Below, one piece after another: positions 7,143-18,458 of a DNA stretch of 64,000 bases (positions are counted from its first letter, which is position 1; every line of letters starts with the position of its first letter). The notes beneath the pieces were generated by a model. That model had not been told where the DNA came from, searched no databases, and was given only the letters and a program-made list of their open reading frames with translations. The position numbers and the translations under genes were made by a program. Source of the DNA: an uncultured Holophaga sp. (GTDB taxonomy: Bacteria; Acidobacteriota; Holophagae; Holophagales; Holophagaceae); NCBI GenBank assembly GCA_963664825.1, contig OY761614.1, positions 2,144,001-2,208,000 on the forward strand. Reading direction: 5' to 3'.

Positions 7143-8108
7143 TCACTCCTTGGTTAGGGCCGCATCTCCCATTCGGATGGAAGCGATGAGACCGGTGGCA
7201 TCCAGTCGGATATCGATGGGGAAATAGGCCAGGGCGCAGGCCACGAAGGGCTCCCGGCTGGGGGCCAGGTAGGCCCTGCGTTCCGTGGAACCCACCTGTT
7301 GGGCGAGATGGCGGGCCTCCTCCAGGCTTTCGCCTTCTAGGACGGAAAGGTGGGTGGAGAGGTCGCTGTGCATGCAGGGGATGATCCAGGTGGAGCCTTC
7401 AGGGGCCGCCGGCGCACCGGGCTCCAGGGGCACGATGTAAATGCGAGGTCCCAACCGGCCCAGGGGGAGATCCAGGGCCTCGAGCCCGGGGAGGGACCAC
7501 AGGTAGATGCGGGGAGGCGGGCCGCCGAGCAGGGAGAAGGCTCGCTGGAACTGCTGCACGAGATCGGGGACCTCCCCCTCCCAGGCTTCCTTGAGGCGAC
7601 CGAGGCGGCCCTCGTCGGCCTCTGCCAGGGCGAAGCAGAAGGCGTGGCGAAGGACCCAGCCCCGGATGATCTGGGAACCATTTTCCTGGAGGAGGCGATC
7701 CTCCCAAGCCTGGCGAAGGCCGCGAGGCATTTCGCCCCTGCGGACCAGGGCCTGCCCCCGGCGCCAGAGGGCCGCCTGGGAACCCGCCAGGGAGAGGGGC
7801 AGGGTCTGGATTCGGGGACCCCATTGCTCCATGGGTGCGGCGAGAAAAGCCCGCAGGGCTTCGGCCTCGCGGTAGGATGCACTTCCCTTCGGGAAGGGAT
7901 TGTGGGGCAGGGGCTCCCGGAGGGCCGCCAGGAGCCATTCCCGGGCGGGGCGATCCTTGGGGCGAACGGAAGGGGTGGGCAGCTTCTGGGGGGAGGGATC
8001 CTCGTCGAAGGCCTCTAGGATCTGCGGCAGGGCTTCCCCCAGGGGCAGCACCGGAGGAGCCGCCTGGAGCAGGACGGTCGCGAAGGTAAGCAGATGGGCT
8101 GGGCGCAT
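7143..8108 (-). CDS. Hypothetical exported protein
   Basis: Start trimmed to MRPAHLLTFATVLLQA (signal-like); the longer ORF would overlap pyrF. Confidence 0.7.
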   Translation of the reverse strand: MRPAHLLTFATVLLQAAPPVLPLGEALPQILEAFDEDPSPQKLPTPSVRPKDRPAREWLLAALREPLPHNPFPKGSASYREAEALRAFLAAPMEQWGPRIQTLPLSLAGSQAALWRRGQALVRRGEMPRGLRQAWEDRLLQENGSQIIRGWVLRHAFCFALAEADEGRLGRLKEAWEGEVPDLVQQFQRAFSLLGGPPPRIYLWSLPGLEALDLPLGRLGPRIYIVPLEPGAPAAPEGSTWIIPCMHSDLSTHLSVLEGESLEEARHLAQQVGSTERRAYLAPSREPFVACALAYFPIDIRLDATGLIASIRMGDAALTKE

Positions 8109-8926: not shown

Positions 8927-9481
8927 GTGACCTCCCTCACGCCCCTGGTCTATCGTCCCAGCCTCGCCCAGAGGGCGGTAGCACTCCTCCTCTTCGCGGG
9001 GTCCTGGATGGTCGGCGTCCGGGGCCTGGTCCAGGTGATCCAGCAGTTGCCCCGACTGGTGGCGCTCCTGCGCCTGGCGGAGCTGAATGCCGAGCCCACC
9101 CTACGGATCTGGGTGGCGCTGGTGACGAGCGTGGCGGCCTGTGCCGGGGGCGGGATCCTCCTGCTGCTTTCGATCCTCTTCCTGCTCTTCATCGAGGGGA
9201 CCCAGGTGCTTGTGGACGAAATGGGGATCGCGGTGGAATTGGGTCCGGTTCCGGGCCCCATCGCGCGTCGCATGGGGGCGGGGCGGCTCAGTTGGAAGCA
9301 GGTGGGGCACCTGGAAAAGGGGCGTTTCTTCTTCATCCTGCGGGGGGGTGGGGATCCCCAGGCCAAGCTGAAACAGGGTTTGGGACCCGACCCCGTGCTG
9401 CGTTTTCTGGTGGTGGACCAGCTGGATCGTCTTATTTTGACTATCCTGGAGCGAAGCCCCAATCTGCACTTCAAGGATTGA
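8927..9481 (+). CDS. Hypothetical membrane protein (2 TM plus PH-like C-terminus)
   Basis: GTG 10 nt after the pyrF stop; two hydrophobic helices. Confidence 0.7.
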   Translation: MTSLTPLVYRPSLAQRAVALLLFAGSWMVGVRGLVQVIQQLPRLVALLRLAELNAEPTLRIWVALVTSVAACAGGGILLLLSILFLLFIEGTQVLVDEMGIAVELGPVPGPIARRMGAGRLSWKQVGHLEKGRFFFILRGGGDPQAKLKQGLGPDPVLRFLVVDQLDRLILTILERSPNLHFKD

Positions 9482-9555: not shown

Positions 9556-10575
9556 ATGAGAACTTCCCTTCTTTTCCCCGCCGTCCTGGTCTGCAGCGCC
9601 TTGGCTGGGCAGACCGCAGGCCCCGAGACGTTGGTTCAGCGCTTCAATACCAATCTGCCGGATGTCAATAAGCTCCTGAATGAGGTGAAATTCCAGGAAG
9701 CGCTCGAAAAGGCGCAGGGCCTCCTCCCCGCGCAGTCCCCCGTTTTCGTCGCCAAGGATCCCGCTGCCATCGAGGGGAGTCTTGAAAACGGTCGCGGGAT
9801 GTTGGCCCTCCTCAAATTGAGGATCTCCTGCGTGGCCGCCCTGGGGCAGTGGGAAAAGGCCGTGGAGCTCAATCAGGCCCGCCTGGACTATTCCCATGCC
9901 CTGAGCGCGGACCTGAACAAGGCCACCGGCGATCTCAGCGCCCAGTGGACCAAGGTCGTCGAAGAAGGGAAGGCCTACATCCTTCAGAATGAATCCAAGG
10001 CTGCCGAGATCGAAAAGAATCTCGCAAAGCTCCAGCAGGACATCAAGGACTTCAACGAGAAGAAGGTCAAGCTCGACAAGACTCAGCTCGGAGAGCTCCA
10101 GGCCAGGGCCAAGGCTGCCCCCCAGGAAGAACAGCAGATGCTCGAGATCAAGGGCAAGGTCGGGGCTTACAAGGAAGCCCAGGGGCGCTACAAACAGTTT
10201 TCGGACTGGGTGGCCGAGACCCATAAGCAGGCCGATGCCATGATCAAGGACGCCGAAGAAGGATTGGCCAAGGCCCAGGACACCCTCAAGGGTCAGGCCG
10301 CCGAGATTGCGAAGTTCAATGCCGATCAGCTGAAGAAGAACAAGAAGTTCAAGGCTGAGGGCAGCAAGAAGTGGGTCGAAGCCGTCATGCGCGACAAGAC
10401 CAATCTCACCAAGCTCGAAACGCCGCGGCTGCAGGGGCAGCTCCTGAACCGCCTGTTGGTGCTCGATCCCACCGAGAAAAATGCCCTGATGGCCTTCGAA
10501 AATGTCAAGCAGGGCCGCGATCCCTTCTTCGCGGCAAAGTCCGCCTCCAAGTCCAAGAAGGCCCCCAAAAAGTAG
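9556..10575 (+). CDS. Secreted coiled-coil protein, paralog 1 of 3
   Basis: GGAG RBS, signal peptide, GQWEKA and RLLVLDPTE motifs, Lys-rich tail. Confidence 0.85.
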   Translation: MRTSLLFPAVLVCSALAGQTAGPETLVQRFNTNLPDVNKLLNEVKFQEALEKAQGLLPAQSPVFVAKDPAAIEGSLENGRGMLALLKLRISCVAALGQWEKAVELNQARLDYSHALSADLNKATGDLSAQWTKVVEEGKAYILQNESKAAEIEKNLAKLQQDIKDFNEKKVKLDKTQLGELQARAKAAPQEEQQMLEIKGKVGAYKEAQGRYKQFSDWVAETHKQADAMIKDAEEGLAKAQDTLKGQAAEIAKFNADQLKKNKKFKAEGSKKWVEAVMRDKTNLTKLETPRLQGQLLNRLLVLDPTEKNALMAFENVKQGRDPFFAAKSASKSKKAPKK

Positions 10576-10597
10576 CCTGTTGCTAGAAAGGAATCCC

Positions 10598-11488
10598 ATG
10601 AGGACCCTCATCGCTCGAACTGGGTTGGCGGTTTGTTCTGCCGTTCTCGTCGCGCAGGTCCCGGCTCAGCCGGGTCTGAACCCGGAGCTGCGGGCGGCGC
10701 TGCCCGAAGCCCAGAAACTGGTCACGGCATTCAAGGCCCGCGAGGCGGAGGCTAAGCTCGGCACGCTCCTGCCGACCACGGTGCCGGCCTGGGACAAGAC
10801 CGGTCCGCAGACCCAGTTCGCCAGCTACACGGCCTACCGCGAGTATGCCTACGCGTTCTTCCTCGCGGGCCAGGCGGCCGATGCCTCGGGTCATTGGGAG
10901 AAGGCCCTGGAGCGATATCAGAAGGCCGGGGAGATCGCCAAGACCAATGCGGATTCCGTGAAGGCTTCCTTCCCGTTCATCGTCGATTACTACAACAACC
11001 TCGTGGTGGGCAGCAAAAAGACGCTGGAGGAGAACGCGGATTTCATCAAGACGCTGCGGGCGAAACCCAACCCCGATGAGGGTGACAGGCAACAGATCGA
11101 CTTGATCAAGGGTGAGGAAGCCTCCATCGAAGTGAACCAGAAGTCGGCCAAGGTCTTTGCGGACTACATCGTCAGCGCCCAGAAGGAGGCGGACTACTAC
11201 GCCAAGTTCTCCGTGGACGAGGAAACCCAGATCAAGGACGAACTCGATCAGCTTGAAAAGTACAAGTACAAGCATGACAAGGTGAAGTTCGTGGAAGGGA
11301 TCATGAGCTCCAAGACCTTCCTGGATCAGCAATTTTCAGAGAAGTCCGACAAGGTCCGCTACCTCTATCGCTTGAACGTGCTGGACCCCAGCAACCACAA
11401 GGTCGCCCGGGAGATTGAACAGCTCACAGGCGTCAGTGTCGTGGTCACGGCCTCCGAAGAGAAACCCAAGGGCAAGAAGGGCAAGTGA
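10598..11488 (+). CDS. Secreted coiled-coil protein, paralog 2 of 3
   Basis: AAGGA RBS, signal peptide, GHWEKA and RLNVLDPSN motifs, Lys-rich tail. Confidence 0.85.
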   Translation: MRTLIARTGLAVCSAVLVAQVPAQPGLNPELRAALPEAQKLVTAFKAREAEAKLGTLLPTTVPAWDKTGPQTQFASYTAYREYAYAFFLAGQAADASGHWEKALERYQKAGEIAKTNADSVKASFPFIVDYYNNLVVGSKKTLEENADFIKTLRAKPNPDEGDRQQIDLIKGEEASIEVNQKSAKVFADYIVSAQKEADYYAKFSVDEETQIKDELDQLEKYKYKHDKVKFVEGIMSSKTFLDQQFSEKSDKVRYLYRLNVLDPSNHKVAREIEQLTGVSVVVTASEEKPKGKKGK

Positions 11489-12354
11489 AGATGCGCACCT
11501 GGCTTGCCGTTCTGGTCGTACCCGCCCTCGTGGCGCCCCTGGGGGCTCAGACCCTGGCTGATCGCCTCAAGGAAGGTCACAAGGCCTGGGATCTCGCGCT
11601 GGAGCGGGGCGATGCTGCCAATGTCCGGCGCGGCACGGAGGGCCTCCTCCAACGGGAGGCCCTCACGGTCGGGACTACGGATTACAACGAGATGCGCGCA
11701 CTGGTCGCCGTCCATGACTACGCCGCCCGAGCCTGCGCCCAGGAAGGTGCGTGGGAGGATGCGATCGTCCATCTCCAGAAGGCCGCAGCCTCCGCCGCCG
11801 AGAACCTGACGGCCACCGAAGGCACCTTCTCCCGCATCCGCAAGGATCATGAGGCCAAGTTGGTCGAATGGCGCGAGACCATCGCCAAGCAGGAACAGCG
11901 CTTGAAGGACCTGGAGGCCCAATCGGGCCTTACGGAAGAGCACATGAAGCTCCGCGCGCAGATCCGGGGTTTCCTGGATGAGCATCGCAGCGCCATTGCC
12001 CACAGCGAATGGTCCCTCAAGGAGATCGATGGCTTGCTGGCCCAGCTCCGGAAGGAGAAGGAGACCTATGTGGCCTCCCTGGCGGCCTGGCAGGATTTCC
12101 TCGTCCGGGAAAAACAGGAGATCGCTCAGGCCGGGGGCAGTCCCAAGTTTGTGGCAGAAAAACTGGAGCAGGTGAAGGCCGATGATGCCCGCCCTAAGGG
12201 GGATCGGTTGGCCTATGGCCGGCGTCTGTTGCGCCTGGATCCCGAAAATAGCGAGTGCAAGCGGTTTGTGAATGGCCTCGTCGGCGTTTCCGATGAGCCC
12301 GAGGCCCCCGTCAAACCGGCCAAGAAGAAGGTCCGGAAATCCAAGAAGGGCTGA
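11485..12354 (+). CDS. Secreted coiled-coil protein, paralog 3 of 3
   Basis: GTGA start/stop overlap with paralog 2; signal peptide, GAWEDA and RLLRLDPEN motifs, Lys-rich tail. Confidence 0.85.
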   Translation: MKMRTWLAVLVVPALVAPLGAQTLADRLKEGHKAWDLALERGDAANVRRGTEGLLQREALTVGTTDYNEMRALVAVHDYAARACAQEGAWEDAIVHLQKAAASAAENLTATEGTFSRIRKDHEAKLVEWRETIAKQEQRLKDLEAQSGLTEEHMKLRAQIRGFLDEHRSAIAHSEWSLKEIDGLLAQLRKEKETYVASLAAWQDFLVREKQEIAQAGGSPKFVAEKLEQVKADDARPKGDRLAYGRRLLRLDPENSECKRFVNGLVGVSDEPEAPVKPAKKKVRKSKKG

Positions 12355-12370: not shown

Positions 12371-12401
12371 AAAGAAGCCCCGCCATGGCGGGGCTTCTTT
12401 T
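12371..12401. terminator. Bidirectional intrinsic terminator
   Basis: AAAGAAGCCCCGCC-AT-GGCGGGGCTTCTTTT between convergent genes. Confidence 0.85.
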
Positions 12402-12417: not shown

Positions 12418-13068
12418 CTAGAACACGCATCCGAAACTGACACGGACGAAATCGGTGTTGGGGGGATCATTCTTGGCTGTGTCGTTACCCGTGAGCGTCT
12501 TGTGGTAGGTGGCCTCTAGGGTGAAGCGCAGGCCTGCGTCGTAGCCGAAGGTGTGGCCGATCCCGAAGTTGCCTCCCAGGCGGGATTTGCGCGTGGTGTC
12601 GACATCGTCGTAGTTGTCGTAGTAGTTATCGTCCAGGTTTCCGAAGCTCCGCTCGAAGCGTTCGAAGTCCGCAGAGAGACCGACGATGAAATAGGTACCT
12701 CGGTGGCGGTAGGCGCTCTCCGTGAAAATCTGGAGATCGCCGCCCACACTGAACATCGTGTGTCTGAGATTGATCTTGTCGTAGCCGGGTGCCGTGTTTG
12801 AACCGTCCGTGACCTGTCCACCAAAGTCCAGGCGGATGGCGAGTTTGGGATCCACGGGAAAGCTGACCGTGAACTGGCCGCCAAAGCCAAGGTCATAGCC
12901 TTCGTTCTGGGAGGCCAGGACTGACCCGCTCGGGGGATAGGTCTTGTTGTTGAAGTCCCCTGTAGGCATAACCAGATTGAACGCGACTCCGAAGCGGGGT
13001 TGCTGAGCCTGGAGTGCGGAGCCCGTGCCGATCAGGGCGACCAGGGCGGGAATCATCATTCGTTTCAT
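12418..13068 (-). CDS. Outer-membrane beta-barrel protein (8-stranded OmpA/OmpW-like)
   Basis: Signal peptide, alternating amphipathic strands, terminal Phe (VRVSFGCVF). Confidence 0.8.
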   Translation of the reverse strand: MKRMMIPALVALIGTGSALQAQQPRFGVAFNLVMPTGDFNNKTYPPSGSVLASQNEGYDLGFGGQFTVSFPVDPKLAIRLDFGGQVTDGSNTAPGYDKINLRHTMFSVGGDLQIFTESAYRHRGTYFIVGLSADFERFERSFGNLDDNYYDNYDDVDTTRKSRLGGNFGIGHTFGYDAGLRFTLEATYHKTLTGNDTAKNDPPNTDFVRVSFGCVF

Positions 13069-14907: not shown

Positions 14908-16080
14908 ATGATGCATCAGCGGCCTAGGCTGTTTGCGCTCTCCGTATTGACCTGTTTTGCCCTCGGCCTCTCGGCCCAGGAGCCGCAGCCTGCCCCGGAA
15001 CCAGGGGTCGGCGAAGTCCAAAAAGTGGCTGCTCATTTCTCCAAGTGGGACTTTCCCAAGGAAGTGACCGTTCCCACCGGCAGCCAACTCTATCTGGTTG
15101 TGAAGGGCGATACCCTCTGGGACCTGGGACAGAGTTTCCTGGGAAATCCCTTTGCCTGGCCCCAGATCTGGGAACAGAACAAGTGGGTCAAGGATCCGCA
15201 CTGGATTTACCCTGGCGATCCTTTGATCATCCCCGTGGCCAAGCAGACCGTGGCAGGCCCCGGATCGCCGGCCCAGGCGTCCTCCGAGGTCGCCGGTCTC
15301 AGGCCCGACCGCACCATGGCCCACAAGCCCATCCAGGAGGAGTACGGGTTCACCTTCCAGGATTTCATCCAGTTGCCGTACCTGGTTCCTGCGGGTGCCG
15401 AGGCCCACTTCAAGGAAATCGGTGCCTTCACCATCACGGAGCGGCGGGAAGAGATCCGCAGCTTCCTGGGGGATGGAGAGACGGTCTATCTCGCTGGCGG
15501 AGCGGATCGCGGCGTAAAAGTCGGGGACCGCATGGTCATCCTGAAGGTGTCGAGTCGGAAGCTCCGGCATCCCGAACCGAAGACCCATCGGAAGCCCCTC
15601 GGGGATGTGGTTCAGCAGATCGGTGTCCTCCGCATCACCACGGTGAATCCGGCCGGTTCCATCGCCGTGATCGAACGTTGCATGGATGCGGTGGAGGTGG
15701 GCTTCCACGCGGCACCCTTCGTTGAGCCCGCTAATATGGTCGCCAAGCTTCGCGCCGATATCACGGGTCCAGTCGCCCTTCAGGAGCCCACGGCCAGGAT
15801 CGTGTTCGCCCGGGAGAACCACCAGGAAACGGCCAATGGGGAGATGATCATCATCGATCAGGGCTCCAAGGACGGGCTCAAGGTGGGGGATGTGCTCATG
15901 GCCGCCCGCGTTCGTGTGTGGCCCGCCAACGAGGCCCGGAAGGCCAAGGAACGGGTCACCGAGAAGACCACCTATTATGTCGGCCAGGTCTTGGTGGTGC
16001 GTGTGGACGAGGCCAGCGCCACGTGCCGGGTTCTGCGCGCCAAGGAAGAATTGCACGGAGGCGATATCCTTACCCGCTAG
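14908..16080 (+). CDS. LysM peptidoglycan-binding exported protein
   Basis: Signal peptide; YLVVKGDTLWDL...WPQIWEQN...DPHWIYPGD. Confidence 0.9.
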   Translation: MMHQRPRLFALSVLTCFALGLSAQEPQPAPEPGVGEVQKVAAHFSKWDFPKEVTVPTGSQLYLVVKGDTLWDLGQSFLGNPFAWPQIWEQNKWVKDPHWIYPGDPLIIPVAKQTVAGPGSPAQASSEVAGLRPDRTMAHKPIQEEYGFTFQDFIQLPYLVPAGAEAHFKEIGAFTITERREEIRSFLGDGETVYLAGGADRGVKVGDRMVILKVSSRKLRHPEPKTHRKPLGDVVQQIGVLRITTVNPAGSIAVIERCMDAVEVGFHAAPFVEPANMVAKLRADITGPVALQEPTARIVFARENHQETANGEMIIIDQGSKDGLKVGDVLMAARVRVWPANEARKAKERVTEKTTYYVGQVLVVRVDEASATCRVLRAKEELHGGDILTR

Positions 16081-17665: not shown

Positions 17666-17738
17666 ATGGAACGTAGATCAAGACTCGGTCCAGGGGTACC
17701 ATAACCCCTTGGCCTTCGGGCCGTCCCCGGGAGAACGT

Positions 17739-18458
17739 GTGATCAATCTACTCTTGGGCCTGGGCGCCGCCATTGTCCTGGTCCTGTTATTCAGCCTCCT
17801 CAAGATAAGCCTCTGGCTGAGCATTCCCCTCGGCTTGTTGGCTGGCGGGGCTCTCTTCGTCTGGCTAGGGCGGAAGGTCCAGGCCGAGTTGGAGAAGATC
17901 TTCAACCGGGCCGGGGAGCTGATGAAGAAGCAGCACTTCGACGCCGCCATTCAGGTGATGAAGGAAGGCTACAAGCTGGGGCCCCGCCAGTTCCTGGTGA
18001 AGGGCTCCATCGATGGCCAGATCGGCGTCGTGCAGTACCTGCGCAAGAAGAACGAGGAGGCTGAACCGCTGCTCAAATCCGCCTCCATGCAGCACTACGT
18101 GGCCAAGGCCATGCTCGCCATCCTCCAGTGGAAGCGGGGCGAGAAGAAAAAGGCCAAGCAGACCTTCGAACTGGCCCTCAAGGCCGGCAAGAAGGAAAGC
18201 CTGCTCTATGGTGTCTACGCCTATGCCCTCAACGAGATGAAGGAGCGGGACGCCGCCATCGAGGTCCTCAACCGCGGTCTCAAGGTCTGTCAGGGCGACG
18301 AGCGGCTGCTCACCAATCGAAGCCTCCTGCAGAACGCCAAGCCCATGAAGATGAAAATCTTCGGCGAGCAGTGGTACCAGTTCATGCTTGAGCGTCCCAT
18401 CCTTCGCCAGGAACCACCTCCCTTCGCCCGAGTTTCCAAGCGCACTCTTCGGGGCTGA
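17739..18458 (+). CDS. Membrane-anchored TPR-like protein
   Basis: Two N-terminal TM helices followed by helical repeats. Confidence 0.75.
   Translation: MINLLLGLGAAIVLVLLFSLLKISLWLSIPLGLLAGGALFVWLGRKVQAELEKIFNRAGELMKKQHFDAAIQVMKEGYKLGPRQFLVKGSIDGQIGVVQYLRKKNEEAEPLLKSASMQHYVAKAMLAILQWKRGEKKKAKQTFELALKAGKKESLLYGVYAYALNEMKERDAAIEVLNRGLKVCQGDERLLTNRSLLQNAKPMKMKIFGEQWYQFMLERPILRQEPPPFARVSKRTLRG

Follow-up and report, generated by a model that had tools for sequence, protein, structure and literature searches.

Probably exported proteins with a predicted split TPR cap and helical arm: a candidate family of periplasmic adaptors in the Holophagaceae

The 64,000-nucleotide (nt) stretch analysed here (the window; contig OY761614.1 of an uncultured Holophaga sp., positions 2,144,001 to 2,208,000, forward strand) contains three adjacent genes, denoted A, B and C, whose products are candidate periplasmic adaptors. 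We tentatively propose, with a probability of about 0.45, that each protein is formed by a tetratricopeptide repeat (TPR) cap with an arm of fixed length and works in a manner similar to CpoB and LpoP. According to this proposal, A, B and C would be exported to the periplasm via Sec with cleavage of the signal, and the TPR groove together with the basic segment of helices 6–7 would bind a fixed, conserved envelope partner. The helical arm, protruding by approximately 5–6 nm beyond the cap (36 residues at 1.5 Å each), might be a spacer or a dimerising rod, setting a distance or pairing subunits, and the lysine-rich tail might provide non-specific retention on anionic envelope polymers. A and B would be duplicates that evolve faster; they would probably associate with C or with themselves, thereby varying the partner or the reach.

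The sequence-only reading described A, B and C as secreted paralogues, and the predicted signal peptides, basic-hydrophobic segments followed by Gln, and the common motifs are indeed in place. BLASTP yields E-values of 3e-12 for A–B and 1e-7 for B–C, and a weak 0.013 for A–C. The claim hinged on homology among the three, and the profile–profile comparison recovers it over nearly the whole length, with E-values of 5.2e-51 (A–B), 3.7e-28 (B–C) and 1.5e-18 (A–C). Judging by the profiles, which are decisive here, the three proteins are paralogues. The motif GxWE[KD]A is represented by GQWEKA in A (9844–9861), GHWEKA in B (10889–10906) and GAWEDA in C (11746–11763); RLxxLDP by RLLVLDP in A (10450–10470), RLNVLDP in B (11369–11389) and RLLRLDP in C (12223–12243); and K-[WF]-V by KWV in A and KFV in both B and C. 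Exactly A, B and C contain both GxWE[KD]A and RLxxLDP among the 6244 six-frame open reading frames (ORFs) of at least 200 amino acids (aa) in the source genome; since the motifs were picked from these very proteins, this count characterises specificity and has no P value. A profile search of the source genome reveals no paralogue beyond these three.

Members of the family are present in nearly all Holophagaceae genomes. Query C has a match in 109 of 111 genomes; the match in G070 is weak and arises via a paralogue, which leaves a C orthologue in 108 of 111. A 57-row profile of the A, B and C types has a match in 110 of 111. Three copies are found in 79 of these genomes, four in nine, five in one, two in ten, one in eleven and none in one. 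At the level of the phylum, all 23 Holophagaceae genomes are matched versus two of 278 other Acidobacteriota, both matches being weak and partial (E-values 4.5e-7 and 1.2e-6); these 278 genomes yield no full-length match, and query B finds nothing in 16 genomes of two sister families. Because the A/B/C proteins occur in nearly all Holophagaceae genomes and have no full-length match in the other Acidobacteriota sampled, they form a good marker of the Holophagaceae, and their earlier description as lineage-specific holds. A profile scan of 1.84 billion representatives retrieves 107 matches with E-values of 1e-30 or better; among the best 150 matches listed, the weaker ones are fragments and multi-repeat TPR proteins, mostly aligned at profile positions 75–120.

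The three genes are not equal in their distribution. Seven genomes in two genera have C only: in four of the seven a search with the B profile at E 0.01 finds C alone, and in all seven the interval between the upstream genes and C contains no paralogue. C, which can occur without A and B, is the housekeeping member. Two reduced genomes (1.2 and 0.9 Mb) retain one A/B-type gene and C. Of 25 hand-picked C loci, 22 have a paralogue immediately before C and five are contiguous triplets; in total, the contiguous A–B–C triplet was seen in eight genomes of four genera. In the non-triplet genomes the third copy lies at a different site, in many cases close to cysS and rnr. What is conserved is C, as a rule preceded by one A/B-type gene; the contiguous triplet, assumed earlier to be the conserved element, is not the norm.

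A tree of the 111 locus proteins, built with FastTree, rooted at the midpoint and used for description only, separates C from the A/B types. The ratio of nonsynonymous to synonymous divergence (dN/dS) is well below 1, for instance 0.06/0.87 for C, 0.11/0.77 for B and 0.18/0.89 for A in the comparison with genome G006, and dN is lower than dS in all 21 comparisons. C evolves most slowly and A most rapidly. By these estimates the family is under purifying selection.

The structural part of the proposal rests on AlphaFold models of mature C (136-row alignment) and mature B (81 rows). The mean predicted local distance difference test (pLDDT) scores are 95.8 and 95.3, respectively, and both models are all-helical, no strand being assigned by DSSP. 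The helices of the C model span residues 3–19, 23–40, 46–65, 69–124, 130–195, 198–211, 217–230 and 235–245. In the structural alignment of this model against 48,161 PDB chains, TPR domains align to the range 1–186 over about 100 residues with the hairpin 89–165 looped out, and two-helix hairpins align separately to residues 89–165. The cap matches, to peptide-binding TPR domains, include KLC1 (Z 12.9, root-mean-square deviation (rmsd) 3.0, 103 aligned residues), IFT-A (Z 12.2, rmsd 1.7), PlcR (Z 12.0, rmsd 2.1) and LpoP, an activator of PBP in the periplasm (Z 10.0, rmsd 2.9, 94 residues, rank 34). Most of the top 50 structural rows for C are TPR-type arrays, and its helix pairs stack with TPR geometry. 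Since the TPR domains match the range 1–186, helices 1–4 and the returning end of helix 5 would constitute a TPR array. The arm is, in the model, an insert of about 77 residues between cap helices 4 and 5, continuous with both. The B profile aligns with the consensus TPR sequence at an E-value of 1e-12, one repeat being recognisable. The B and C models and the alignment of the C cap to TPR domains agree with the initial suggestion of a TPR-like cap that is split by a protruding, antiparallel coiled coil.

The spacing from GxW to RLxxLDP is 159 in 145 of 151 C-type proteins; in B-type proteins the mode is 160 (61 of 105) and in A-type proteins 200 (11 of 39). Of the earlier statement that the coiled-coil region differs in length among the three proteins, the longer region of A stands, but the arms of B and C match in length. 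Of the 88, 77 and 83 columns of C in the first half of the cap, the arm and the second half of the cap, respectively, 32, 16 and 29 are conserved at the level of at least 85%, the alignment being rich in close relatives. Nine of the ten basic residues conserved at this level are located in the cap, six of them in helices 6–7 and the linker; the C-terminal half of the cap holds the most conserved basic segment together with RLLRLDP. Conservation, as estimated from this alignment, is concentrated in the cap, and from its pattern we infer that the concave TPR groove may bind a peptide or a protein. The arms of A and B vary in sequence. A disulfide between C63 and C237 of C was considered and rejected, as both cysteines are present in 72 of 136 sequences and show no sign of joint loss. 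The spacing at the hairpin tip resembles the RLS motif of efflux adaptor proteins, which we judge to be a generic helix-capping pattern.

A cleavage-type site [AGS]Q is found at residues 13–30 of 107 of 111 family members. No lipobox-like motif is present in any of the 111, and none has a membrane-length hydrophobic segment in the mature part, the highest 19-residue hydropathy being 1.51 and no value exceeding 1.6. Hence the proteins are likely to be exported by Sec with cleavage of the signal and to be soluble in the periplasm. At least five lysines among the last 15 residues occur in 82 of 111 members. Among the ORFs of the genome, the same rule selects 13 of the 225 called secreted by heuristics, Skp included, versus 16 of 3030 others. 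Thus, the lysine-rich tails, correctly noticed in A, B and C, are partly a trait of secreted proteins in this lineage (about tenfold enriched) and are not special to the family. Since they are carried by other secreted proteins and are short or missing in members from the reduced genomes, they are a poor clue to specific binding of lipopolysaccharide or peptidoglycan, the role initially suggested for them. Several signal peptides of lysine-tailed secreted proteins end just before Gln, and the tails and Gln sites possibly reflect a lineage-wide retention or N-terminal processing habit.

The intergenic gap between A and B is 22 nt, as initially described, but the GTGA overlap between B and C is uncertain. 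Two in-frame starts of C are available, the GTG forming the overlap and the ATG; the latter fits the public record of C, which has 287 aa, and the GTG is missing in one of five C orthologues checked. The single terminator proposed to close the three genes is represented by a stem-loop with an A-tract before and a T-tract after it (folding z = -3.43), though a consensus terminator scan found none and missed it. As A/T tracts flank both sides, the stem-loop likely serves the convergent outer-membrane protein (OMP) gene as well. Contigs from RNA libraries of relatives (mostly 90–99% alike; four runs of one study) cover parts of A, B and C, and bridge the A–B junction in one case and the B–C junction in three.

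Table 1. Coordinates of genes A, B and C and of their elements in the window
Feature	Position	Strand	Comment
Gene A	9556..10575	+	339 aa; fastest-evolving paralogue; about 40 extra residues between the GxWE[KD]A and RLxxLDP motifs
Gene B	10598..11488	+	296 aa; model pLDDT 95.3, all-helical, helix order as in C
Gene C	11485/11491..12354	+	289 aa from GTG 11485, 287 aa from ATG 11491; conserved core member
A signal peptide, predicted cleavable (Sec)	9556..9609	+	heuristic; followed by Gln; without lipobox
B signal peptide, predicted cleavable (Sec)	10598..10654	+	heuristic; followed by Gln
C signal peptide, predicted cleavable (Sec)	11491..11547	+	heuristic; followed by Gln
C TPR cap, N-terminal half, helices 1–4 (predicted)	11548..11811	+	GAWEDA is the turn of TPR repeat 2
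C inserted antiparallel helical hairpin (predicted)	11812..12042	+	model residues 89–165; AlphaFold model and structural alignment
C cap, C-terminal half, end of helix 5 and helices 6–8 (predicted)	12043..12291	+	model and alignment
C lysine-rich tail	12292..12351	+	equivalent tails in A and B
Stem-loop with flanking A/T tracts	12372..12399	.	likely bidirectional terminator, common with the convergent OMP gene

Several observations weigh against the adaptor proposal. Z-scores of 10–13 for a helical model can reflect a common helical arrangement, and few structural matches span residues 190–248, so that the fold of the C-terminal part of the cap is barely tested. The Pfam TPR_2 model scores 19.1 bits in B, with a cut-off of 27, and is absent from A and C. 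The constant arm length could reflect a folding constraint and not a ruler role, and an outer-surface or extracellular location is possible. The RNA contigs provide a hint of expression, in which transcripts are not separable from DNA carry-over and a single transcript is unproven. The neighbours are housekeeping genes with no common theme, and no partner is named by the locus. Finally, no family member was found in one of the reduced genomes, G041 (94% complete, 50 contigs), although the search there did not find the adjacent pfkB either.

Rare fusions fit a portable interaction module, yet point to no pathway. In one of them, with two members (P0252 and P0319), a secreted protein has an A-type module behind a caspase (C14)–PEGA unit; in the other, also with two members (P0223 and P0320), a partial C module follows an unassigned domain of approximately 190 residues. 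A search for longer fused forms among 7988 candidates found none, but it also missed P0252, which is within its length range, and hence is uninformative.

The proteins might instead be ATP-independent periplasmic holdases of the Skp/prefoldin kind, with the arms surrounding unfolded envelope proteins as tentacles and the TPR caps replacing the beta hub. Long soluble hairpins on a compact hub, as seen in the models, the variable sequence of the A and B arms, retention in reduced genomes, and the existence of several paralogues that differ in arm length, as those of prefoldin do, are all consistent with this. However, the hydrophobic residues of the arms form mainly a single stripe, with a period of 3.5–3.6, which the hairpin itself can satisfy; the genes of Skp, SurA-type, PpiD-type and LolA-type proteins are all present; and conservation in the charged cap surface suits a fixed partner. 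We consider a holdase function doubtful. A heterotrimer was mentioned as a possibility in the sequence-only reading; an obligate 1:1:1 assembly of A, B and C, building a structural rod or cage within the envelope, is unlikely, because seven genomes have C alone. In addition, ten genomes have two members, including two reduced ones with a pair, nine have four and one has five, and the contiguous triplet was seen only in the eight genomes mentioned above. At the same time, the number of members is exactly three in 79 of 111 genomes, whether or not the genes lie together, a family member directly precedes C in most hand-picked loci, RNA contigs bridge both junctions, and the matched arms of B and C (160 versus 159) have opposite mean charge at the tip (-2.1 in B versus +1.4 in C, in arbitrary windows). 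With matched B and C arms and a stable count of three, facultative hetero-assembly is plausible, and a facultative hetero-oligomer derived from a C homo-oligomer is compatible with the adaptor proposal. A more specific variant, in which a C homo-oligomer acts as a ruler bridging two envelope layers or complexes and A and B swap in as hetero-subunits changing the reach or the partner, has rather low odds, comparable to those of the holdase.

A look-alike search with a language model returns the cluster of FcpA, the spirochaete flagellar sheath protein; B scores 0.91 in it, with 172 shared features, and a C orthologue scores 0.87. Flagellin-family matches are found in four of five genomes tested. 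Nevertheless, generic TPR clusters score equally in this search, the genes are not beside motility genes, and G011, the one genome concerned, has two members and no flagellin match; a sheath or accessory protein of a flagellum or pilus is therefore a very improbable assignment. Even less credible is a tripartite alpha-helical pore-forming toxin of the ClyA/Hbl/Nhe/Ahl type. It would account for the three-gene layout of secreted helical paralogues in the window, and Foldseek ranks AhlC first for each of the two models, but the E-values (0.036–0.045) are not significant, the TM-score of 0.28–0.31 and rmsd of 19–21 Å speak against a common fold, all 111 mature proteins are devoid of a membrane-length hydrophobic segment, and the near-universal, syntenic, purifying pattern is that of a core gene. 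An equally remote idea, which arose post hoc after screening of about nine envelope or motility families, takes A, B and C for a non-orthologous substitute for YfgM, a TPR protein that partners PpiD at the Sec translocon. According to passages of PMC9643414, YfgM binds PpiD through its TPR domain. An acidobacterial YfgM-like profile matched none of 99 Holophagaceae versus all 23 other genomes of the class, which are from sister families, and PpiD-type genes are kept. A tally of 128 of 151 in this line of evidence includes the unpublished genome G150, and none of the conclusions drawn here rests on it. However, profile comparison with the family yields probabilities of 3.6% and 0.5%, and YfgM has an uncleaved N-terminal membrane anchor behind a cytoplasmic tail, which the A/B/C family lacks. 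Moreover, a deeper profile and topology scan found two near-identical, strongly diverged YfgM-like genes in the source genome (G000), C1:1389735–1390526 (+) and C1:1900245–1901021 (-), the first of which adjoins a gene homologous to the one that comes after yfgM in G133. The apparent loss of YfgM is due to divergence.

The locus has a conserved order: M1 peptidase, pyrF, a membrane protein, A/B, C, the convergent OMP barrel, Smr, PfkB kinase, a LysM protein, rsmG, ybeY, a TPR membrane protein and yebC. Since all-against-all clustering marked shadow ORFs as clusters, Pfam-checked clusters alone were used. In the reduced genomes the family is kept beside pfkB, rsmG, ybeY and yebC, and the OMP and LysM genes are not in these loci. 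The membrane protein between pyrF and A (approximately 8927–9481, plus strand) has no Pfam match and is conserved in 14 clustered loci; its true start is probably near 8927 rather than 8672, and it does not occur in the reduced-genome loci. The outer-membrane beta-barrel gene (12418–13068, minus strand, PF13505) converges on C, probably has the terminator in common with it and shows the deepest RNA-contig cover in the stretch; two segments inside the gene are left out by the contigs, which is probably due to variable loops or to paralogues. The LysM protein (14908–16080, plus strand), conserved in the locus, has a weak FlgT_C match and may resemble the type IV pilus secretin anchor TsaP. The TPR protein with two membrane helices between ybeY and yebC (17709–18458, plus strand) is retained even in the reduced genomes. 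A protein of up to 320 aa (7143–8105, minus strand), divergent from pyrF, has a signal-like segment and no Pfam match, and similar ORFs adjoin the M1 peptidase in several relatives.

The reduced genomes G011 (1.2 Mb, one contig, 96% complete), G042 and G041 form a genus of strongly reduced Holophagaceae, possibly symbionts, of which a literature search found no description. G011 retains Skp and LolA-, PpiD- and CpoB-like genes and has no flagellin match. Recoding in G042 was considered and rejected, as the flagged TGA codons are the stop of C (P0265); the G042 row of alignment A1 extends six residues past this stop, which is negligible.

Envelope biology outside the Proteobacteria is poorly mapped. 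Being near-universal in the Holophagaceae and retained in two of three reduced genomes, the family is a candidate for a core factor of the envelope. Genomes with one, two, three or four of the genes are natural variants that provide a ready test of the change from homo- to hetero-oligomers.

That no family was recognised initially is in agreement with the database searches. Pfam yields sub-threshold matches only (FliT, TPR_2, Cast), NCBIfam applied to 57 members gives coiled-coil noise alone (SMC in 17 of 57), and PDB sequence searches return only TPR-repeat matches; no family covering the whole protein is found in Pfam, NCBIfam or PDB. At an E-value of 0.001, Foldseek finds no PDB match for C or B and no BFVD match for C. 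FcpA, Skp and CpoB are not among the fold rows listed by Foldseek, which does not exclude them. A search by title and abstract, with subscription journals and supplements outside its scope, found no publication on the family. An EnvC-like activator was considered and rejected, the only sequence match being non-significant (E 0.25). A 445-aa frame elsewhere in the source genome matches M23 and may be EnvC, and the FtsX model proved too insensitive for a judgement (1/5).

In comparison with Skp/OmpH and prefoldin, the long helical hairpins projecting from a hub are similar. The hub of Skp/OmpH and prefoldin is a beta-sheet, whereas the B and C models have no strands. OmpH (PF03938) has no match at E 0.1 in A, B or C, and a separate Skp is encoded in all five genomes tested, the source genome among those that keep their own; so far as membership of these families goes, the Skp/prefoldin-like role suggested earlier is not supported. 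The proposed functional analogue is CpoB/YbgF, a coordinator of Tol-Pal and PBP1B, which, in the relevant passages of PMC7391070, is likewise an exported protein of approximately 28–35 kDa combining a small TPR domain with a long coiled coil. According to the same passages, CpoB is located in the periplasm, has a coiled coil that is trimeric besides its TPR domain, and binds TolA and PBP1B. In CpoB the trimeric coiled coil is attached to an intact three-repeat TPR domain, whereas in the A/B/C family it is predicted to be intramolecular and antiparallel and to split the TPR. None of 57 family members matches TIGR02795, the best match in the genome being another gene; the neighbours of A, B and C are unrelated to those of the tol-pal locus of cpoB/ybgF, and a separate cpoB-like gene is present in the genome. 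The cap resembles the Pseudomonas periplasmic TPR protein LpoP no better than it resembles many unrelated TPRs. LpoP is a lipoprotein with a flexible linker, whereas the A/B/C family has no lipobox and a predicted rigid arm. Among TPR domains in general (KLC1, PlcR, LGN, the designed CTPR), helices 1–5 of the C cap resemble a 2.5-repeat array, but C differs by the hairpin insert and has neither uninterrupted repeats nor a whole-chain structural match. Thus A, B and C are outside the Skp, CpoB, YfgM and pore-toxin families; the split TPR/hairpin architecture and the family itself appear to be new, and the kind of periplasmic adaptor combining TPR and coiled coil is already known.

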